DNA from: Gammaproteobacteria bacterium
GTDB lineage: Bacteria > Pseudomonadota > Gammaproteobacteria > SZUA-152
Direction of reading: 5' to 3'
NCBI GenBank assembly: GCA_015487095.1
Contig: WFQM01000320.1
Coordinates: 1 to 44,721, forward strand
DNA: 44,721 nt
Translations under genes and position numbers: made by a program
Shown here: positions 7,508 through 44,300 of the stretch, piece by piece
Layout of the letters: each line of letters begins with the position of its first letter
How positions within the stretch are numbered: the stretch's first letter is position 1
Notes under the pieces: generated by a model
Seen by the model: only the letters and a program-made list of their open reading frames with translations
Told to the model about the DNA's origin: nothing
The model's database searches: none

Positions 7508-9100
7508 TCAGCCAGTAGAGTCCTGCCGACATTCCTTGCAATAAACCTTACCCAGTCGAACATGATATTGCACACGTTCGCCCACCAATATTTCCTGCTG
7601 GCAGCTATCACAAAGTGTTGCATCATCCATAGTCATTTCATCAAAACCTTCAACCGGCAGCTCTTTGCCAAACACTATTTTTTTCCAGGGTTTATCTTTG
7701 ACGATATCTTTTCGGTATATTTCTTCTATCGCACGGAAGCGTCTTACTAAATATTCCGGTACGCCAAAGCGTCTCAGGCTTGATTCCATTAATGCTTCAC
7801 GATGGTCAAGCAGCTCATCAGAAATTACCATCCAATGATGGGCGCTGCGTGGGCGTTCACCAAAATAAACATCTTCACCTGTTAGCACCTGACACATAAA
7901 ATTATATTGTTTCTCAATCAGGCGTTGTTTAGTAGCGCCTTCAAAAAAAGGAGACAGCAATGGATCATCGTAGACATGGTCATAAAAATCGATCAATACT
8001 TTTGACAAAAGACGACCTTCATCGAGTCCTTTCCAAAGCTCAAGGTCTGGATCAGGATAGTTGCGGAGTTCTGCACAGCGAATGCGTTCTGCTGTGTCGG
8101 CATCTGTATCATTTAGATTGGCGTCATTAACGCTAGCCCAGTCCCAGAATGGGTCGGCGTGAATTTCCTGCGGGTTAGCGCCTGCCGTCTGAGTGGCTTG
8201 TTGCATGTCTTCCACCATCTTTGGGTGGCCGCATAAATAAACCCGCCATCCTTTCAGGTCTGTATGGTCTGCCAAGGCAATATCATTAGCGCGTCCGGCC
8301 CGATGATTTCTCGGGGTTGCATGCCCTGAAACACACGAAACAGGATGAAAATTATCATGCTGTTCAGACAGTTGCTTCAAAATGGGTTGTAAATATAAAC
8401 CGTGTGGATATCGGCTACCATGATACAAATGAATGGGGCCGGTATGTCCGCTGGAAAGCGCATCACGTACAATTCCCAGCAATGGAGATAAACCTGTTCC
8501 GGTACCGATTAATAGTAATGGCTGGTGTTGCTCACCGGGTACATAATAATTGCTGCCTACGGCTCCCTGAAAATCAAGTTCATCATTTTCTGACAGTTCA
8601 TCAAATATCCAGTTACTCATTACACCATTGGATACACGCTTGACATGAATCTCCAGAAAATAATCTTCCTGTGGCACACTGGATAATGAGTAGCTTCGCA
8701 TCTCACCTTGTTGGTTGCGGATATTAATAAACTGTCCGGGGTGATAATAAAGTTGTGTAGCGGGCTCCAGTAATAAGCGACATACATCAGGTGCCAGTAA
8801 TTCTTTTTTGTAAACAACTGCCCGGTTAAATAAATCAGTATCTCGTGGCAGGGAGATTTCCATGTCGTTTTCGGGCATACATTTGCAGATTAGAAAATAA
8901 TCTTTTTCTTTTAGTGTTTCCCGTAATCCTTTTTGGGCTTTTGGCGGTATAAGTCCATTTTCACAGCGCTGTAAACAAACATGACAGATGCCATTCCCGC
9001 ACGAAAAAGGAACGGTTATCCCGTGGCGCATAAAAACCTGTAAAATGGTTTCGTTTTCACGGCACTGGTAACTTTTTCCTTGGAAGTAAATTTTATTCAT
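7508..9100 (-). CDS. Fusion: 2Fe-2S ferredoxin + FAD/NAD(P)H ferredoxin reductase + group I truncated globin + C-terminal Cys4 finger
   Basis: CGNGICHVC...C; RSYSLSS, GTGTGLSP, YLCGHPKM; DFYDHV..DPLLSPFF..Q..F..LTG..Y.G....AH globin pattern; CDSC...CKEC tail. Confidence 0.85.
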   Translation of the reverse strand: MNKIYFQGKSYQCRENETILQVFMRHGITVPFSCGNGICHVCLQRCENGLIPPKAQKGLRETLKEKDYFLICKCMPENDMEISLPRDTDLFNRAVVYKKELLAPDVCRLLLEPATQLYYHPGQFINIRNQQGEMRSYSLSSVPQEDYFLEIHVKRVSNGVMSNWIFDELSENDELDFQGAVGSNYYVPGEQHQPLLLIGTGTGLSPLLGIVRDALSSGHTGPIHLYHGSRYPHGLYLQPILKQLSEQHDNFHPVSCVSGHATPRNHRAGRANDIALADHTDLKGWRVYLCGHPKMVEDMQQATQTAGANPQEIHADPFWDWASVNDANLNDTDADTAERIRCAELRNYPDPDLELWKGLDEGRLLSKVLIDFYDHVYDDPLLSPFFEGATKQRLIEKQYNFMCQVLTGEDVYFGERPRSAHHWMVISDELLDHREALMESSLRRFGVPEYLVRRFRAIEEIYRKDIVKDKPWKKIVFGKELPVEGFDEMTMDDATLCDSCQQEILVGERVQYHVRLGKVYCKECRQDSTG

Positions 9101-9506
9101 GTTTTTTTTGATTGGCATCATATTTTTCAGAGTGGCTGTGTATAACAGGGATTTTTATATAATTTTCTTTTAGGATATGGATATTAACGGCCGTTTTGGC
9201 AAGGTCGGCAATATTTTTAAAGCCTTTGCGCAGCACGATTTGTAGTAGAAAATCAGAGTTGCAATCATACTCACGACATACTTTTGGCCGCTTTTTCCAG
9301 TTGGTGCAGCGGCTATTGTTACGATCAAAGTGGATGCAGTAACCTTCCGAATCTTTATCGACGAAACCTTTGGGTGGAGTGTTGCCATTCGCGGGCTCCA
9401 TTTCATCAGGCTGTAAACGTACCAGTTTTCGACAACAAAAAGTTGCACAGCCCATACGCTGCCCTTCATCACAATTTACAAGGTATGTTTTTTTGCAGTT
9501 ATCCAT
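9093..9506 (-). CDS. YkgJ-family cysteine-cluster protein
   Basis: C..GCATFCC, CIHFD, RCTNWKKRPKVCREYDC; stop overlaps the start of the globin fusion. Confidence 0.8.
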   Translation of the reverse strand: MDNCKKTYLVNCDEGQRMGCATFCCRKLVRLQPDEMEPANGNTPPKGFVDKDSEGYCIHFDRNNSRCTNWKKRPKVCREYDCNSDFLLQIVLRKGFKNIADLAKTAVNIHILKENYIKIPVIHSHSEKYDANQKKHE

Positions 9507-10146: not shown

Positions 10147-11508
10147 TTATGACGACGCAATATGTCGTCCGTTGCTTATGCCGGAATTTGCTACCGCCAA
10201 CGCAAATTCCTCCAAAAATTCTACTTGAACATCTGATTGCACCCAACGAGGCTCAATGCTACGTGCGGCCTCCAGAGCATCCAGAGCAGTTTCACCTTCC
10301 CAGATCAACTGCGCAACGAGCATAGTGCCGGTACGACCCATGCCGGCTTTGCAATGCATGGCAATAGCTTCGCCCTGTTCGGTCAATTCACCCACCTGTT
10401 CGCAAAGTTTGAGAGCGGCTTCAATGGTAGGTACTCCCATATCCTTAATTGGAAATGCAATTCCCTTGATGTCGTATTCGGCAAGTATAACCGGATCAAT
10501 GGGTTGAGTTGTCAGGGAAACCAGCACGCTGATTCCCACTCGCTGTAGCGCAGCGAGATCATAATCCAGTTCGATTAATAATCCGGGACGTGGCGTGCCG
10601 GCCAGGTCACCTTTTCTAAGCCAAAGAAAATTACGAGGCCCAAATGCATCACTTTTGTATTTCCGAGCCTCCTCGGGTATTTTGGGGCGAACCGTTTTAA
10701 GCGGTGCAGCTGGCGTATCTATGGCTTCTGTTACGGGGTCATTCAGATGTTCGTCGGGTGTGTCTGGGGCAGAAACACAACAGGAGCCACTGCGCACAAA
10801 ATCTCTGGCCGCTTGTGATTGAGGTGCTGCAAAAAAATCGGCGGTGGGTTGTGTTTCATGAACCCAGCCACCGGCCAATAATGCGGTTTGTCCACCCAGT
10901 TTGATAGCTTGTTTCTGGTTATGTACAACGACCACCACAGCGCGGCGTTCGGCTTCCATGAGCAGATAATCCAACAGGCGATGGGTTTCTGCTTCATCCA
11001 GCCCGGCAGTGGGTTCGTCTACAAAAATTAATTTGGGGTTAGCTGCTACAGTACGGGCAATTGCCAGGTGGCGTTGCACCGCCAGTGGAAAATCTGAGGC
11101 ATTGTCATTCAGCCGGTCAACTAATTCAGTCAGGCCTGCCTTGCTCAACAGGCGTTGTGCCACATCCCGTTGCTGGGAGATATCCAGTGTATGGCGTTCG
11201 GGCATATCATTAACAATATTCTCACGAATGCTGGCCATGATGAGCTTGGTTTTCTGTGCCACCAGTGCAGGTGACTCAGACTTTCCCAAAGGCATGCCGA
11301 CATATTCGGCCTTGCCCCAAGTGCGTAGAGAAGGATTGGCATTGTTAAGGCCGGAAAGTGTTCGTAGCAGGGTGGATTTTCCAGTACCGGCTGGGCCCAA
11401 CAACACGGTCATTCCCTGCTCGGGAATATCCAGGTCGATACCGTTAAGAATAATTTTATCACCAAAAGCGACACCATACTCTCGCAAAGATAGAATTGAT
11501 TCGCTCAC
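10147..11508 (-). CDS. PstB-like ABC ATPase domain fused to a Cys-dependent (dual-specificity/Tyr) protein phosphatase
   Basis: Walker A GPAGTGKST, Walker B IFVDEPT, H-loop VVHN; general-acid loop FPIKDMGVP and P-loop HCKAGMGRTG (10333-10356); GTG start overlaps the GTPase TGA. Confidence 0.88.
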   Translation of the reverse strand: MSESILSLREYGVAFGDKIILNGIDLDIPEQGMTVLLGPAGTGKSTLLRTLSGLNNANPSLRTWGKAEYVGMPLGKSESPALVAQKTKLIMASIRENIVNDMPERHTLDISQQRDVAQRLLSKAGLTELVDRLNDNASDFPLAVQRHLAIARTVAANPKLIFVDEPTAGLDEAETHRLLDYLLMEAERRAVVVVVHNQKQAIKLGGQTALLAGGWVHETQPTADFFAAPQSQAARDFVRSGSCCVSAPDTPDEHLNDPVTEAIDTPAAPLKTVRPKIPEEARKYKSDAFGPRNFLWLRKGDLAGTPRPGLLIELDYDLAALQRVGISVLVSLTTQPIDPVILAEYDIKGIAFPIKDMGVPTIEAALKLCEQVGELTEQGEAIAMHCKAGMGRTGTMLVAQLIWEGETALDALEAARSIEPRWVQSDVQVEFLEEFALAVANSGISNGRHIASS

Positions 11509-12053
11509 GCGGCTTCTCCATTCAGACCAGGGTCCAGAGAATAAAGCAGAGCCTGAACCAGCATCATGACATCATCATGTTGACGGGCATCCACCTCGAA
11601 CACAGGCACATTCAGATCCAGTTTTGTCAGAGTTGCCTGGTAGTCCTCAAGCTTTAATCCTTTGCGCAATTCCATTCTTGTAATGCCAATGGCCACAGCA
11701 TTATTTTGAATAAACTCTTTAAAGGCGCTGATAAAGGCCTTTAAGTCATCCAGTGGAGCGGGATTGGCATCGTCCAGCATAATAATTACACCAAGGCTGC
11801 CATCGGTGAGCAAGTCCCACATAAAATTGAAACGCTCTTGTCCGGGTGTACCATAAAGATGCAGTGTCTCTCCATTATCCAGACGCATACTACCGTAATC
11901 CATTGCCACTGTGGTCAATTCTTTTTTGTCTTTTGTTTCATCTGTTGCAGTCTGTTCTGTGGAAAATGGTGCAATATCACTAATTGCGGTAATTGCGGTT
12001 GTTTTGCCTGCACCTACGGGGCCGGTAAAAATAATTTTGTACTGACCAATCAT
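11505..12053 (-). CDS. Small GTPase, MglA/conservon CvnD type
   Basis: G1 GPVGAGKTT, G2 TTVAMDYG, G3 LYGTPGQERF, G4-like TRME, G5 DAR. Confidence 0.9.
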   Translation of the reverse strand: MIGQYKIIFTGPVGAGKTTAITAISDIAPFSTEQTATDETKDKKELTTVAMDYGSMRLDNGETLHLYGTPGQERFNFMWDLLTDGSLGVIIMLDDANPAPLDDLKAFISAFKEFIQNNAVAIGITRMELRKGLKLEDYQATLTKLDLNVPVFEVDARQHDDVMMLVQALLYSLDPGLNGEAA

Positions 12054-35416: not shown

Positions 35417-35653
35417 TCAATGATTTTTTGCTTTTAGTTGCCACTTCAAATGATAGCTTGTTAGCAGGCGATGCGTATTTGTCCCGTTCAAATGGTGTTA
35501 TTTGATCCATGTGTGCAGTTTTGATGTTGCTGGTTGTGCATTGTTCCGAATAGTTTTCCCCCTGAAAAATAAAGGATTATTTGAGGATTACTTAAGTTGT
35601 ATCGAGCATTAATTGGCAAGCAGCACCTATTACGGGGGTTGGGGAGGCCGTTT

Positions 35654-37507
35654 ATGGGGATGAAAAATTTGTATCAAAAAGATGGCGTTAAATTGAGTTT
35701 GTCAGCGTGTTTGCTATTAGTTGCGCTGGTGGTGGGGGGAGTGGGCTGTGGTAATACTGAAAATAACAAACTGGCTGCACAGGTTCCGATACAGTCTGTA
35801 ACGATCAATGTGTCGAGTGCTCTGGTAACGCCGACCTATACCCTGAACGGTGCTGCATTTGAACAAAGTGAATACAATGATGGCAACTTTGTGTTGCGTA
35901 ATACCGTATCCGCTGGTGACACGTTAGTGCTGGGCTCCAGCCATGATGCAAGCCCAGCGGCAGTGCGCGTCATACAGGATACATATGATGTGCTGTTCCA
36001 GCATGAGACTGGCAACGGTGTGCCACAAAATGTGGATACACAGGTGCAGGTCAATGAGGTGGTTAATAGTGACAGGGATATGTTCATTGATGTGCGCGCG
36101 TGGGAAATAACGCCCTCGTTTACGCAAAATGCCAGCGCTTTTCCACCGAATGAATATGATACAGGGATGTTTTATTTACAGCCCGATGCTGGTGGTGAAC
36201 GTATTTTTATTGGAAGAAGCCACATGGCATTACCTGCCCCTGTACAGGTAATGCAAGGCACTTATGATGTGATCTACTCACTGGAGACTGGTGGTGAGTT
36301 TGTTCCCAATAATCAGGGTGCTGTTGTTATGGCGGGTGTATCTATCACTGTGGCTGGTGCTTTGGCTGTGGATGTTGCCAGCGTACGTTTTCAGTTTGAT
36401 GCCACATTGGATTTGGCCGCTTTCCCGACTGATCAAAATCATAAAGCACTGTTTTTTCTACGTAACGTCAGTACAGGTGATCGTGTGGAACTGGGCGCGA
36501 GCTTTGAATTGCCGGTCACGCTGTCCGTAGTGGAAGGTACTTATGACATTGTTTATCAACATGTTCGAGGCGATGCCCTGCCCGTTAATACGGATGCTGT
36601 TGTGGCAAGCAATATTATCATCGATGACACAAGTTTATCGGTAACGATTGATATCGACAGTGTGGTAATCACACCTTCGTTTAGTTTGGATGGCAGTGTT
36701 TTTCCGCAGGATGAATACAATGATGCCAATTTTTATTTGCGGGCGATTAATAATTACGATGATGTCATGTTTTTGGGGGCGAGCGAGACGGCCGCTACAG
36801 CGGTGCGTGTGATCAGCAGTGATATGGACACGGCCCCGGGTGTGAGCGAATTATTGTTGGGGACATATGACGTTTTATACCGGCATGAGTCAGGTGAAGA
36901 CGTGCCGCAAAATATCAATGCGATAGTGCCAGGAAGGGGTAACATAGCGCTAAATAGCGACCAAACTCTGATGGTGCCGGTAACTTCGGTCAATATCACC
37001 GGTCGTTTTACCCTCAATGGCAATAGTTTTCCTGGCGATATCAACAACAGCGTGCAGTTTCTGTTACGTGATTCCAGTAATGACAGTGATGAATTTTTGT
37101 TTGGTTTTAGTGATATCAGCAACGAGGCGGTGAAGCTCATACCGGGTACTTATCACGTCGTAATGGACCATCTCTACGGCAGTGCCGTACCGCAGAATAA
37201 AATGCATGAAGTGGATTTTAATAACGTGTTTAGTGAAGACCAAACCCTGAATGTGAATGTTCCAGCGGTACGTGTTAACCCCGGGTTTACCTTGGATGGC
37301 CAGGCTTTTCCAGCCAGCGTTTATCAAAGCGCCACCTTTTATTTATATGACTTTCGTACTGAAACACGCATTTTTTTGGGGCGCAGTTACAAGAAGAATA
37401 CGCCCGTGATGGTGATCAAGGAAAACCACGAAATAATCTACGAGCATATGAATGGTGACCAGGTGCCACAGAACACGAATAACAATCTTGGGGCTGTTGA
37501 TTTGTAG
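35654..37507 (+). CDS. Lipoprotein with six tandem ~95-aa beta-rich repeats
   Basis: GGAGG RBS; lipobox GVGC; repeat consensus TPxFTLxGxxFPxxxYxxxxFxL...LGxS...GTYDVxYxHxxGxxVPQN. Confidence 0.8.
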   Translation: MGMKNLYQKDGVKLSLSACLLLVALVVGGVGCGNTENNKLAAQVPIQSVTINVSSALVTPTYTLNGAAFEQSEYNDGNFVLRNTVSAGDTLVLGSSHDASPAAVRVIQDTYDVLFQHETGNGVPQNVDTQVQVNEVVNSDRDMFIDVRAWEITPSFTQNASAFPPNEYDTGMFYLQPDAGGERIFIGRSHMALPAPVQVMQGTYDVIYSLETGGEFVPNNQGAVVMAGVSITVAGALAVDVASVRFQFDATLDLAAFPTDQNHKALFFLRNVSTGDRVELGASFELPVTLSVVEGTYDIVYQHVRGDALPVNTDAVVASNIIIDDTSLSVTIDIDSVVITPSFSLDGSVFPQDEYNDANFYLRAINNYDDVMFLGASETAATAVRVISSDMDTAPGVSELLLGTYDVLYRHESGEDVPQNINAIVPGRGNIALNSDQTLMVPVTSVNITGRFTLNGNSFPGDINNSVQFLLRDSSNDSDEFLFGFSDISNEAVKLIPGTYHVVMDHLYGSAVPQNKMHEVDFNNVFSEDQTLNVNVPAVRVNPGFTLDGQAFPASVYQSATFYLYDFRTETRIFLGRSYKKNTPVMVIKENHEIIYEHMNGDQVPQNTNNNLGAVDL

Positions 37508-38127: not shown

Positions 38128-38937
38128 CTACTCGTTACCCAAGGCGATGAGTTCTTTGTAATAACCTTTAGCCCCTTTTTTCATGAAATAGTATTTTTTG
38201 GCACCTGCTTTTTCCAGCGCATATTGCAGCCAGCGTACCTGTTTGCCGACTTCGTCATAAATAAGCAAAGTACGATTTTGCTTGAGTGCTTTTTTGATGT
38301 AGCGATCCAGCTTTTTTTGCTGGTCGAGGCTGGCCCAGCGCTCGATGCCTGGGTAAAAACCCACGCCTGCACGCTGGAATTTGTCGCGTACGTCGATAAT
38401 CATATATTTCTGCCGATCTATTGTGGCGCGATCACTGAAGTCATCCGGACTGAGCAGGCGTTTTTTGAAGGTCGATTTGGGGATTAGATGGGCAAGGTTT
38501 ACCGGGCTGTTGCCCAGCAAAACGGCTTCATCCGGGTACGCTTTGGTCCAGTCAAAAATACCCGCGTCAAATGCATACACATCATTGACGTTGACAGCCA
38601 TCGCTTTTTTGGCCGAGATGTACGACTTCATGCAGGTGTGGCCATTGCAGTAAAAGACAATAGGTTTGTTCGTGGTCGCTCGCAGTTTGACGATTTCGGC
38701 TTCAAAGCTTTCGGCGGCTACTGGAATATTGACAGCAGTTTTGATGCGCAGGGTGTCGAATTCCAGCTTGGAGCGGGCATCGACTACGACCACATCGTTG
38801 ATTTTATTGTAGAGGTCTTCCCGCTCGATATAGGGGATTTTTTTGTATTTTGCCCGGCCAGGGAATTCGTCGTCAGCAAAGGCGGTAGAGCCTAGCAGTA
38901 GACTGACAAGGGCAATAATGCTGGTGATTTTTCGCAT
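38128..38937 (-). CDS. Exported tandem rhodanese-domain protein
   Basis: Signal peptide ending AFA; VVVDARSKLEF..IKTAVNIP..IVFYCNGHTC..AGIFDW; second domain IIDVRD..LIYDEVGKQ..GAKGY. Confidence 0.85.
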   Translation of the reverse strand: MRKITSIIALVSLLLGSTAFADDEFPGRAKYKKIPYIEREDLYNKINDVVVVDARSKLEFDTLRIKTAVNIPVAAESFEAEIVKLRATTNKPIVFYCNGHTCMKSYISAKKAMAVNVNDVYAFDAGIFDWTKAYPDEAVLLGNSPVNLAHLIPKSTFKKRLLSPDDFSDRATIDRQKYMIIDVRDKFQRAGVGFYPGIERWASLDQQKKLDRYIKKALKQNRTLLIYDEVGKQVRWLQYALEKAGAKKYYFMKKGAKGYYKELIALGNE

Positions 38938-39346
38938 TTGAAGCTCCATTTGTCATGATCTCCGTGCTGCGATCATGTTGATGTGGTTAACATTCGCTCA
39001 TGTAGACTTGGATGAATGTGTTACCAGAAGGCTCATCAGGAAATGTATTGCGTCTTTTGTCTTATCGGCTAAAGAAAAGAGTTGTTGAGGCCTTATTAAG
39101 CAAGCTCGTAGGAAAGACCAAGCAATTCATACATAATTTGCGCTTTTTGGCTAACTTGTTGTCCCAGTTTAGCGCGTTGTTGCGCAAATTGCTTACTTTT
39201 TGCTCATTGTTGCTATTGTTGGTTTTCTTAGTACAACCACTGATTCTTATCAGTGTTTATTTAGCGGCCATAGTCTTGATTCCTCTGGTACCGGTCGCTT
39301 TCACCCTTTATCCTGTGATCTCTTTCGTTAAGGTTTCCCATTAATA

Positions 39347-41307: not shown

Positions 41308-41666
41308 GCAAATCAATCCCGATGAACCTGACATTATCAGGGCTCGTAGGTGTTGCAATAAATTGTGTTCGTTCTATCTATCTATTACAGACACAGACGA
41401 TTAAACCTGCTGTTTTGTCGTCCCATTGCCGGAATAATTTATACCATACCCGATAACCATTGGGTTTTTACCGATTAACAACACGTAATTTAACCGATAT
41501 CCTAACCAGAGTTTGTTGATGTTTCATTATCATCATCGCTGGAGTTGCTTTTTTTCGCCCTGTTAAGGAGGAAAAATGTCGCAGGGCGTAACGTTAATGG
41601 TTGAAGGGTATGTGTTCAGCTGAGTCGTTACAAAATCAAAAAACAAGGGATTGGAGGAAGGACGTC

Positions 41667-44300
41667 ATGTCGTCAGTGAAGTGGATTCAGGGTATTGTTA
41701 TTTCTTTATCGTTGTTATTGGGAGGCTGTGGAGAAGAGAATGATCCCGATGGGGACGACACATCCAACTTAGCCCCCACAGCGGTTATCACCAGTCCGAC
41801 GAATGGAAGCGTTCACTCCGGGAGTCGTAATATTCTTTTCGTTGGCAGAGGTACGGACGATGAAGATGGCGCATTGAATGGAGCCCGCCTCATATGGTCT
41901 TCCCATATTGATGGTCAACTGGGTACAGGTACAGATATTTTCTCCACGCTTTCCGCCGGTAGTCATACCATTACGTTAAAAGCCACAGACAGTAACGGAG
42001 CGACAGGTACCGATACAATTGCAATCACTGTTAATGCCGCACCTAATGCCGCACCGGTTATCGATAATATGACGGTAACCCCTGCCAGCGTGAATGTCGG
42101 CATGTCAGTGACAGTCAGCTGGAACATTACTGATGCAGAAGGTGATACTTTGATCTGCAATCTGGACATTGATGCAGATGGCTCAAACGAGCACACCATT
42201 GATGATTGCGCCAACAATACCTCTCAAATACATACCTACACACAGGCCGGGGATTATCAGGTACGTCTGACCGTTGTGGATGGTATTAATGCGCCGGTAC
42301 AACAGAATGTGAGTGTGACGATTACTGAGCCGAACACCGCTTCAGCACCGAAGATTATGGGTTTTTCTGCAACTCCCGGAACTCCAAAAACCAACAATTC
42401 TATGACCTTCGGCTGGAGTGTCAGCGACGCTGACGGTGACACATTAACCTGCAAACTGGATGTCGATGCAGATGGTACGGATGACTACACTATCAACGAT
42501 TGCGCCAGCAATACCTCACAGGCGCATACCTACACGCAGGCAGGCGTTTATCAGGTTCGTTTGACTGTTGAAGATGCTACGAACGCTTCGGTGCAAACAT
42601 CGATTGAGCTGACGGTGTTATCGACATCGCCGGTTATCAGCCAGTTCACAGTAGATCCGAACCCGGCCTATTCGACGGTAGCGACCACCTTTTATTGGCA
42701 AGTCAGCGACCCGGAAGGTGACACGCTGACCTGCACGCTTGATATCAATAATGATGGGGCAGACGATTACAGCATTGATGACTGCGCCAATATTGCATCT
42801 CAGGAACATACTTACGCTTCGAGTGGTGATTTCACCGCGCAGCTGACAGTCCGTGACAATGCCAGTGAAACTCAAACCACATTGTCGTTGGCGGTCAACC
42901 CGCAGCTTTTGCTTGAAGTCTCTGTTAATGAGCCAGTGAGTGCAGACGGAAGAGCACTTTATACGATGACGGTGAGTAATGTATCAGCGCAGCCGGTCAA
43001 TGATGTTTCCGTGGTGTATACGACACCGATGGAACTCCGGTTTGATGCTGGCAATGATGCTGAGCCAAATGCGGAAGGTTGCGGAACAACCTGCACCGAT
43101 GGCCTGGAAGCTGCGTGGGCATTGGGCTCGCTGGCTGAAGGTGAAAGTCGTACTATTACCATCAATGCACAGGTTCTCCCAGGCGTGCTGGCAGATGAGC
43201 AGATCATCGCACCTGTACGGGTCACCTCTTCCAGCATAACCGATATCGTCAGTGTGTCCAGGACGGTGGTGGTGAATAACAACCCCAAATCACAACTGGC
43301 CATGAGTGCTTCGGAGGACCCGCTCATGCCGGGTGACAGCCTGACTCTCATCGTTGATGTTGGCAATATCGACAACGCTGTGCTTGATAACATGGAATTG
43401 CGCACCATTCTACCCGCAGGTATCAGTGTGGATAGCATCAGCGATAGCGGCACCGAAGATACCGTCACTGGCGACATTGTCTGGGATGTCAGCAGCCTCG
43501 CCGTAGGTAACGCCCTGCGGCGTACCATTGAGGGCACCGTAAATGCGACGGCCATCGCTGGCCAGATCCTCTCCATCCGCGCAGAGTTGCGTCATGACGG
43601 AGGTGCAAGCCTTGATGTCAGCGCCGAGCAGGTGGTAACTATTGTCGAAAAAACGTTTCCCCTTACTCTCGATATCAGCGCCACCCCCGATCCGGTCGCG
43701 GCGGGTGAGCGTTTGCGTTATGAGTTCAGCATCAACAACGTATCCGCCGCGCCCGTTAATGACATTAGCGTGCTGCTCCGCGTACCGCCTGGGCTTCAGT
43801 TTGACGCTGCAAATGATGCCGAGCCTGATGCGACGGGCTGTGGAACAGTATGTATCGATGGTCAGGAGGCCTCCTGGGTATTGGGTACGCTAGGCGGTGG
43901 CGAAAATCGCACTATTACGGTGAACGCCCTGGCGGATGTCGGCCTGTTGAGTGGTGGCTTGATAACAACTCCTGTTCGTGTTACTGCGACAAATTCAGGG
44001 GATGATATCGACCGTGTGAAGACGGTAGTCGTAGCTGCTGAACCTGTTATTGGTGACCTTGACTTGGCGCGGCAGAGCGGCTGTCTGGCATGTCATGCCA
44101 TTGATGATCCATTTTTCGGTCCCGCATGGAGAGATATTGCTGACAGATATAAAGACACCGCCAATGCAAAAGCCATATTGGTTGATAAGATCAAAAATGG
44201 TGGAAGAGGCAATTGGGGTAATACACCAATGCCCCCCTACTCGCCGCGTGTATCAGATGTAAATATCGAGGCTTTGGCTGATTTTATCCTGAGTCTGTAG
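41667..44300 (+). CDS. Lipoprotein with PKD/Ig-like and DUF11-like domains and a C-terminal class I cytochrome c (c551/c552-like)
   Basis: GGAGG RBS; lipobox LGGC; three HTY..G.Y/F...LTV.D repeats; CLACH at 44082-44096; GPAWRDIA, GNWGNTPMPP. Confidence 0.85.
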   Translation: MSSVKWIQGIVISLSLLLGGCGEENDPDGDDTSNLAPTAVITSPTNGSVHSGSRNILFVGRGTDDEDGALNGARLIWSSHIDGQLGTGTDIFSTLSAGSHTITLKATDSNGATGTDTIAITVNAAPNAAPVIDNMTVTPASVNVGMSVTVSWNITDAEGDTLICNLDIDADGSNEHTIDDCANNTSQIHTYTQAGDYQVRLTVVDGINAPVQQNVSVTITEPNTASAPKIMGFSATPGTPKTNNSMTFGWSVSDADGDTLTCKLDVDADGTDDYTINDCASNTSQAHTYTQAGVYQVRLTVEDATNASVQTSIELTVLSTSPVISQFTVDPNPAYSTVATTFYWQVSDPEGDTLTCTLDINNDGADDYSIDDCANIASQEHTYASSGDFTAQLTVRDNASETQTTLSLAVNPQLLLEVSVNEPVSADGRALYTMTVSNVSAQPVNDVSVVYTTPMELRFDAGNDAEPNAEGCGTTCTDGLEAAWALGSLAEGESRTITINAQVLPGVLADEQIIAPVRVTSSSITDIVSVSRTVVVNNNPKSQLAMSASEDPLMPGDSLTLIVDVGNIDNAVLDNMELRTILPAGISVDSISDSGTEDTVTGDIVWDVSSLAVGNALRRTIEGTVNATAIAGQILSIRAELRHDGGASLDVSAEQVVTIVEKTFPLTLDISATPDPVAAGERLRYEFSINNVSAAPVNDISVLLRVPPGLQFDAANDAEPDATGCGTVCIDGQEASWVLGTLGGGENRTITVNALADVGLLSGGLITTPVRVTATNSGDDIDRVKTVVVAAEPVIGDLDLARQSGCLACHAIDDPFFGPAWRDIADRYKDTANAKAILVDKIKNGGRGNWGNTPMPPYSPRVSDVNIEALADFILSL

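Follow-up and report, generated by a model that had tools for sequence, protein, structure and literature searches.

In contig WFQM01000320.1 of assembly GCA_015487095.1 (Gammaproteobacteria bacterium, SZUA-152), positions 1–44,721 of which were analyzed (the window), a single open reading frame (ORF) on the + strand at 41667–44300, starting with ATG, encodes a protein of 877 amino acids. Sequence comparison confirms the predicted product as a lipoprotein that carries a complete cytochrome c551/c552 domain at the end of a stalk of seven folded domains. It is a lineage-restricted form of membrane-tethered class I cytochrome c in which the new part is the folded stalk. Electron carriers are usually free in the periplasm or arranged in multihaem chains; in this instance a single-haem carrier, opposite in charge to its free relatives, sits fixed on an extended stalk of folded domains. 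No description of a lipoprotein combining PKD, DUF11 and c551 domains was found in the open-access PMC and bioRxiv literature. Details of the gene, with the basis of each assignment, are as follows.

41654..41660, + strand: Shine-Dalgarno-like GGAGGAA, 7 nt 5′ of the ATG at 41667 (read from the sequence)
41667..41729, + strand: lipoprotein signal peptide, residues 1–21, with lipobox L-G-G-C21 (translation)
41730..41774, + strand: acidic tether, residues 22–36, GEENDPDGDDTSNLA (composition; predicted local distance difference test score, pLDDT, <50 in the AlphaFold2 model)
41775..42044, + strand: stalk domain D1, an immunoglobulin (Ig)/PKD-like beta-sandwich, ∼residues 37–126 (K319L-like_PKD and PKD_4 matches; AlphaFold2 strands 38–122)
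42045..42908, + strand: stalk domains D2–D4, three PKD domains, ∼residues 127–414 (Pfam PKD and PKD_4; AlphaFold2; positions of motifs and cysteines; conservation)
42909..44036, + strand: stalk domains D5–D7, three DUF11 beta-sandwiches, ∼residues 415–790 (Pfam DUF11, three stretches; AlphaFold2; invariant cysteines)
44037..44054, + strand: short linker AAEPVI(G), residues 791–796 (low pLDDT over 790–805; comparison with free c551 precursors)
44055..44297, + strand: c551/c552 (class I, c8-type) monohaem domain, residues 797–877 (PDB phmmer; PF00034; invariant ligands)
44298..44300, + strand: stop codon (ORF call)

The leader reads MSSVKWIQGIVISLSLLLGG-C21: a signal peptide with n-region and h-region that ends in the lipobox LLGG-C21. 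In an alignment of 15 sequences C21 is nearly invariant; orthologs and paralogs have the lipobox LLGAC, and glycine occupies position +2 in every copy seen. The tether that follows is 15 residues long and contains six acidic and no basic residues. Both elements had been called in an earlier annotation made from the letters of the window alone (henceforth the original prediction), and both are present in the translation. The same annotation had counted about four PKD/Ig-like and about three DUF11-like domains, and these counts are upheld by Pfam and by AlphaFold2. Of the two PKD profiles (PF00801 / PF18911), PKD_4 matches at 67.7 bits (cut-off 27) in four stretches and PKD at 65.6 bits (cut-off 23.5) in three stretches, and DUF11 (PF01345) at 60.4 bits (cut-off 24.6), also in three; Cytochrom_C (PF00034) matches residues 803–877 at 33.2 bits (cut-off 21.3). 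The AlphaFold2 model, built on the 15-sequence alignment (mean pLDDT 69.5; predicted template-modelling score, pTM, 0.33), places beta-sandwich domains at residues 38–122, 131–220, 229–318, 323–410, 416–535, 543–659 and 666–789 and a helical tip at 797–876. Linkers between domains of the stalk span just 4–8 residues. According to the model, the only disordered part between anchor and haem domain is the 15-residue tether, the remainder consisting of the seven folded domains. The geometry first proposed, in which a lipid anchor is followed by ∼790 residues of folded Ig-like domains with short linkers and, at their distal end, by a single haem domain, is supported.

By every sequence criterion tested, except that of being a free protein, the tip belongs to the c551/c552 family. 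The haem motif, C806-L-A-C809-H810, is encoded at nt 44082–44096 and the axial Met855 at nt 44229–44231; no other CxxCH occurs in the protein. Solved c551/c552 chains in the PDB align with the tip over their full length (phmmer), with E-values ranging from 6e-20 to 1e-16: 6.4e-20 for 1dvv and 8.5e-20 for Nitrosomonas europaea c552 (1a56). Residues 9–85 of the tip query align to residues 6–80 of the 82-residue 1dvv, and both CLACH and the methionine of the PMPP motif (M855) match their counterparts in 1dvv and 1a56. The four residues C806, C809, H810 and M855 are unchanged in each of the 15 aligned homologs. An intact mono-haem c domain with CLACH and a distal methionine, as originally proposed, is thus borne out by alignment to solved structures. 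Unlike the small periplasmic proteins that are exported with a signal peptide of their own, the domain forms the C-terminal 81 residues of an 877-residue lipoprotein. The fused domain starts exactly at the position that corresponds to the mature N-terminus of the free c551s encoded in the same genome (DL[DEA]LA..SGC).

The simplest objection is that the gene is an artefact, either because a stalk gene and the gene of a small cytochrome were joined in assembly or because the fusion is functionless and decaying. The assembly is indeed fragmented and of metagenome type (348 contigs), and repeated stalk paralogs could mislead an assembler. However, the architecture recurs. A search of 5.8 billion proteins returned the combination of PKD and/or DUF11 with PF00034 in 15 of the 120 protein clusters listed (400 hits, E ≤ 0.001); the 15 clusters come from four sources (ncbi, jgi, ena and logan) and are 66–88% identical to the query over 86–100% of its length. 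The junction between stalk and tip, near 44040, is bridged by a 3579-nt contig covering 42173–44600 (run X5, record 11) and by a contig covering 43673–44103 (run X7, record 28), the two runs being public vent metagenomes of two different other studies. The order comprises one family and seven genera, from which 32 species genomes were compared. Full-length genes that combine stalk and cytochrome are present in five of the 14 genomes of the window's genus (g1) and in none of the 18 genomes of the other six genera. The window's genome and genome G025 each contain two c551-tipped paralogs, ∼73% identical to each other. The gene is under purifying selection, the tip as much as the stalk: the ratio of nonsynonymous to synonymous substitution rates (dN/dS; Nei-Gojobori, NG86) is 0.163 overall and 0.177 for the tip when compared with the ortholog in the syntenic locus L011, and 0.205 overall and 0.175 for the tip when compared with the in-genome paralog. 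A chimeric or decaying fusion is excluded because of the independent occurrences (the same junction in 15 clusters and five species genomes), the bridged junction, the intact frame, the invariant haem ligands and the low dN/dS (0.16–0.2 throughout). With this the chimeric assembly, the hazard named in the original prediction, falls away; we regard the artefact as refuted and the chance that it is nonetheless correct as negligible.

The closest relatives of the tip reveal where the protein departs from its family. The 86-residue tip was searched against 1.84 billion representatives, giving 3548 hits, 859 of them at E ≤ 1e-10. The stored best hits include 111 proteins that end in a c551 domain with one CxxCH. 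Classed by a simple regular expression, 64 of these are at least 150 residues long and have a lipobox-like motif within the first 45 residues, 22 are of at least the same length and have no such motif, and 25 are shorter than 150 residues. Those tethered relatives whose sequences were inspected consist of a lipobox, then 100–150 residues rich in Pro, Ala, Glu, Thr and Ser, and then c551; a lipoprotein-tethered c551 of 200 residues is found in a sister genus of the same family. Since 64 of the 111 are long and bear a lipobox-like motif, a lipid-anchored c551 on a tether appears to be a common, uncharacterised design. The premise of the original prediction that c551/c552 cytochromes are normally small and soluble holds for the known free periplasmic forms of ∼80 residues, but needs correcting for the nearest relatives, of which 64 of 111 are lipoprotein-like. 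Lipoprotein-tethered c551s (170–250 residues) share with the stalk protein an N-terminal lipid anchor and a C-terminal c551 domain (58–65% identity). They differ in the tether, which is disordered, whereas the stalk consists of seven folded Ig-like domains comprising five to eight times more residues. These comparisons mark the stalk-c551 protein as a tether-swap variant: seven folded domains take the place of the disordered tether.

A quick maximum-likelihood tree of c551 domains (94 columns, many unresolved forks) groups the 15 stalk tips in one clade (Shimodaira-Hasegawa-like approximate likelihood-ratio test, SH-aLRT, 97) that lies inside a polytomy of tethered c551s and is separate from the two free c551s of the genome. 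A single clade would fit one fusion event, from a tethered or a free ancestor. The tips have also changed in charge. Each of the 15 c551 domains carried on a stalk is acidic to neutral (isoelectric point, pI, 4.4–6.8; net charge −5 to 0), the tip of the window gene having a pI of 5.1. By comparison, pI exceeds 7 in 100 of the 111 related c551 domains, in 58 of the 64 lipoprotein-tethered c551s and in both free c551s of the same genome (8.9 and 9.6). Docking of small cytochromes is largely electrostatic. The charge switch suggests different partners, adaptation to a very acidic stalk, or both.

The stalk is itself distinctive in composition. The mature protein has a pI of 4.05, with 116 Asp and Glu residues to 38 Lys and Arg. 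Each of domains D2–D4 contains a D-x-[DN]-x-D-G loop (at 167, 265 and 359) bracketed by a conserved pair of cysteines (164/181, 262/279 and 356/373), and an invariant C-x3-C is found in D5 (472/476) and in D7 (725/729). To judge from these motifs, the loops look like Ca2+ sites and the cysteine pairs like disulfides. No cofactor-binding motif was found in the stalk when the whole protein was examined for sequence motifs. Because such motifs are absent from the stalk, and the only CxxCH lies in the tip, the stalk cannot conduct electrons; donor and acceptor must therefore both lie within reach of the tip. An Ig-like domain measures ∼3.5–4.5 nm, and from the number of domains the stalk would be ∼25–30 nm long; the width of the Gram-negative periplasm is similar. 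Foldseek searches with the full model returned only generic tandem-Ig proteins (mastigoneme and alpha-2-macroglobulins among them), which offer no functional clue.

The genome to which the window belongs (3.6 Mb, 96.8% complete) encodes four stalk paralogs with near-identical leaders:

window gene 41667–44300 (+ strand) and C336:14253–16859: the two c551-tipped stalk paralogs
C348:443–3694: stalk paralog of ∼1084 residues that has two additional DUF11 modules and ends in an orphan domain of ∼200 residues
C117 and C279: stalk paralog running off the contig end, apparently tipless

The apparently tipless paralog resembles an 893-residue cluster (P0015) and a tipless stalk lipoprotein of 899 residues in genus g2. 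The same genome encodes both kinds of head in free form as well, with ordinary signal peptides: two c551s of 107 and 108 residues, ∼58% identical to the tip, and a copy of the orphan domain that makes up a secreted protein of 200 residues (C117:1619–2218, + strand). The orphan domain is all-beta, with three motifs resembling G-[LF]-G-[FA]-R or A-V-A-M-R-E. It has no Pfam match and just seven standalone homologs; a jacalin/VOMI-like beta-prism is a lead with a sub-threshold score (0.86), and the AlphaFold2 model of the domain has a mean pLDDT of 37. Together the paralogs define what, from their sequences, is a modular platform with an interchangeable C-terminal head: c551, an orphan beta-rich domain, or none.

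A related arrangement is seen at L010:5469–9530 (metagenome-assembled genome HyVt-540), where the ABC-2 transporter known from upstream of the window gene is followed directly by a PKD-only stalk protein of 510 residues. ORFs of 220 and 406 residues, both lacking a Pfam match, precede this stalk gene. On its 3′ side, as on that of the tipless paralog (C117/C279), is a histidine kinase/response regulator pair. The locus appears to be a hotspot for the exchange of stalk genes.

The immediate flanks of the stalk-c551 gene are housekeeping in nature: upstream are an ABC-2 exporter and a rhodanese, and downstream, in the syntenic locus, genes for beta-lactamase-like, YkuD and sucrose-phosphate synthase proteins. 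Neither the window nor L011 contains a redox partner, a secretion or flipping gene, or a haem-maturation gene beside the stalk gene, and scans for promoters and terminators around it gave results at chance level. A rhodanese gene is located within 3 kb of each c551-tipped paralog (window 38128–38949, − strand; C336:12710–13576, + strand). Six syntenic neighbors are 84–97% identical to their orthologs, five of them 89–97%; for the stalk gene the value is 88%.

Elsewhere the genome, which belongs to a sulfur bacterium of hydrothermal vents, encodes two RuBisCO large subunits, SoxZ, a haem-copper oxidase and GspL of a type II secretion system (T2SS). The window stretch occurs in hydrothermal-vent metagenomes, and no RNA data set was among the sources listed for it. 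Three adjacent ORFs (539, 955 and, open-ended, at least 1507 residues) contain 21, 36 and 63 CxxCH motifs, respectively (C231:16618–26505, equivalent to L017:4631–14506), and have matches to Cytochrome_C7, Paired_CXXCH and MtrC/MtrF domain II/IV. Giant cytochromes related to these are present in 19 of the order's 32 genomes, the longest frame reaching 2508 residues. A TPR CcmH-like gene lies 5′ of the giant cytochromes, and SoxZ is on the same contig. A further multihaem cluster (C115:740–12834, L018) has ORFs with 7, 7, 8, 6, 6, 3 and 4 CxxCH motifs and includes a membrane protein with Fer4 as well as a fusion of a cytochrome with a beta-propeller of NHL repeats; by gene content it looks like an envelope electron conduit. 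Finally, three ORFs have a layout like that of Cyc2 (C341:3603–4874, + strand; C285:3164–4321, + strand; C39:18549–20126, − strand): a signal peptide, a lone CxxCH ∼40 residues in, a body of 380–500 residues and an aromatic/aliphatic end, two of them ending in Phe. The fused cytochrome-porin layout, and its need for a periplasmic partner, are described in PMC13741234.

Comparison with characterized proteins places the stalk-c551 protein among several systems, none of which it matches in full. Soluble c551/c552 proteins (Pseudomonas c551, N. europaea c552, Hydrogenobacter c552) have in common with the tip a full-length match, the CxxCH, the PMPP methionine and the pattern of helices; they are free periplasmic proteins of ∼80 residues, whereas the tip is acidic and follows a stalk of 790 residues. 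MtrC and OmcA of Shewanella are displayed at the surface via the T2SS. Like the stalk-c551 protein they are lipoproteins that combine cytochromes with beta-sandwich domains, but they are decahaem proteins that dock on MtrAB, in contrast to a protein with one CxxCH in a 96.8%-complete genome in which MtrB/PioB (PF11854) was not found. Cytochrome cy, anchored by a transmembrane helix to which a flexible linker is attached, works at the inner membrane and is devoid of an Ig-like stalk. In Rhodobacter capsulatus its class I domain, joined to a membrane anchor via a linker, carries electrons between complexes (PMC7876108). With such tethered cytochromes the stalk-c551 protein shares the anchor and the C-terminal class I domain, but not the flexible linker. 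PgcA of Geobacter sulfurreducens, a 'haem-tethered redox string' (PMC10570954), is an extracellular protein in which monohaem domains alternate with non-redox spacers and make contact with minerals; it has three haem domains and low-complexity links, as against one haem and folded spacers, and kinship of the haem domains is not shown. In Laz of Neisseria a small carrier of periplasmic type has been made into a lipoprotein with a spacer (PMC6277709), although Laz is a cupredoxin with a short repeat spacer and not a cytochrome.

What the protein does is a matter of weighing. We lean, at a probability slightly short of even, toward a functional lipoprotein of the envelope serving as a tethered carrier of single electrons, anchored in the outer membrane and favored to be displayed outward. 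Such a protein would be exported by Sec and then lipidated at Cys21; the periplasmic cytochrome c maturation system would attach haem to CLACH, and the resulting c551-type haem, ligated by His810 and Met855, would exchange single electrons. The stalk, stabilized by disulfides and probably by Ca2+, would pivot on the hinge provided by the short 15-residue tether, and the haem would travel back and forth between redox proteins, located in the outer membrane or outside the cell, and solids or cells no more than ∼30 nm away. Being non-diffusible, such a shuttle would suit a setting of flowing vent fluid. Loading with haem, the length of the stalk, the location of the protein and its partners are all predicted, as are the uses named in the original prediction: contact electron transfer to minerals, sulfur or partner cells, or a span across the periplasm. 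Several observations favor the surface. Under the E. coli rule, Asp at +2 of the lipobox means retention at the inner membrane and Gly at +2 leads to the outer membrane; the rule is not established for this lineage, but the presence of Gly and the absence of Asp at +2 would be consistent with outer-membrane sorting. The acidic stalk, the Ca-type loops and the five conserved pairs of cysteines are reminiscent of extracellular adhesin stalks, and among more distant stalk relatives there are fusions to subtilisin, cadherin-like, HYR and other modules of extracellular type. We also count toward the surface the identity of the stalk gene (88%, as against 89–97% for five of six neighbors), the changed charge of the tip, and the presence of T2SS GspL, the MtrC/MtrF-like giant cytochromes and the cytochrome-porin-like candidates. 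Moreover, 790 folded residues in place of a cheap disordered tether would make sense if the tether has to survive and stay stiff outside the cell. A more specific version – a 'fishing-rod' shuttle at the cell surface, whose rigid, Ca-stiffened rod of ∼25–30 nm, set on an outer-membrane lipid anchor and a short hinge, would swing an acidic c551 haem between redox proteins of the outer membrane or the exterior and mineral, sulfur or neighbor-cell surfaces, the stalk being a general platform for displaying otherwise free periplasmic proteins – is possible but somewhat doubtful. If true, it would constitute a third strategy beside soluble shuttles and multihaem wires, fit for flow in which diffusible shuttles are lost.

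Several points weigh against outward display. No computed result puts the protein on either side of the outer membrane; secretion or flipping genes are not adjacent in the window or in L011, and the genome's Slam-like match is borderline (21.4 bits). Co-occurrence with giant multihaem cytochromes is not supported, these being present in two of the five stalk-c551 genomes (the other three are 73–86% complete); MtrB/PioB was not found, as noted above; and the Cyc2-like candidates, which have no Pfam or NCBIfam match, are leads by layout only. Confidence in the AlphaFold2 model is only moderate (pTM 0.33), and the length of the stalk comes from the domain count, not from coordinates. One haem cannot wire 25–30 nm, and the model therefore needs the mechanical swinging that we propose. 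Other points tell for a rival explanation in which the carrier is tethered within the periplasm: with its anchor in either the inner membrane or the inner leaflet of the outer one, and with a stalk about as long as the periplasm is wide, the protein would hold its c551 at the opposite membrane and serve bc1, haem-copper oxidase, Sox or outer-membrane porin-cytochromes, in the manner of cytochrome cy or of c551 lipoproteins with disordered tethers. We consider this plausible, if on the unlikely side. The tip is a bona fide member of a class of periplasmic carriers, and its nearest c551 relatives are probably periplasmic carriers too; their tethers of 100–150 residues rich in Pro, Ala and Glu approximate seven Ig domains in extended length. 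Large multi-Ig lipoproteins can be periplasmic, E. coli alpha-2-macroglobulin, among the fold matches, being one. SoxZ, the two RuBisCO genes and the haem-copper oxidase fit such a carrier, and the Cyc2-like outer-membrane candidates would need a periplasmic partner (PMC13741234). Membrane-anchored cytochrome cy is an established precedent (PMC7876108), and for Laz, which is likewise a carrier with a lipid modification, exposure at the surface of gonococcal cells was shown not to occur (PMC6277709). Yet if reach alone were needed, a folded stalk of 790 residues would be costly compared with a linker of 100, and the peptidoglycan layer would restrict a rod. The acidity of the stalk tips, where free and tethered carriers are basic, argues against shared partners, and a stalk so acidic, with Ca-type loops and disulfides, is in keeping with adhesin-like stalks outside the cell, although the periplasm is also oxidizing. 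Sister paralogs have a non-redox tip or none, and the stalk is therefore not specific to respiration. That last point, together with the shared leader and stalk of the tipless and non-haem-tipped paralogs, leads to another explanation: that the family is mainly structural or adhesive (a surface coat or adhesin) and the c551 head an accessory for redox sensing, for scavenging peroxide or other oxidants with a partner peroxidase, or for binding a cytochrome-decorated surface. PKD and DUF11 arrays are typical of adhesin-like proteins, the orphan tip has its weak beta-prism lead, and an adjacent redox partner gene is absent from the window and L011. Nonetheless, the haem-binding and axial ligands are invariant, selection on the tip is as strong as that on the stalk, and the lectin lead is sub-threshold, with an orphan-tip model of pLDDT 37; we know of no non-redox role for the His/Met c551 fold. 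We judge a mainly structural or adhesive role improbable.

If the stalk of the tethered carrier does display haem outside the cell, it would represent a new mechanical solution for electron exchange with solids in vent chemolithoautotrophs; if the protein stays inside, the tether length and stiffness of carriers would be under selection. The fact that the near relatives are mostly lipid-tethered, combined with the fact that the heads also exist as free proteins, suggests testable rules for the positioning of envelope proteins.

Three other regions of the window are of note. At 7508–9121 (− strand) a protein of 537 residues combines a 2Fe-2S ferredoxin, an FAD-/NAD-binding reductase and a C-terminal bacterial-like (truncated) globin, an unusual order for globin and reductase. 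At 10147–12053 (− strand) there is a 453-residue fusion of an ABC-type ATPase with a dual-specificity/tyrosine phosphatase; directly downstream of the fusion gene (upstream on the + strand), with a 4-nt overlap, is a gene for a Ras/Roc-like small GTPase of 182 residues, and the two may form a signaling pair. Lastly, 35597–37507 (+ strand) encodes a probable lipoprotein of 636 residues (..VVGGVGC-GNTENN) that has no Pfam match and is retained in L010 (73%) and L011 (89%).

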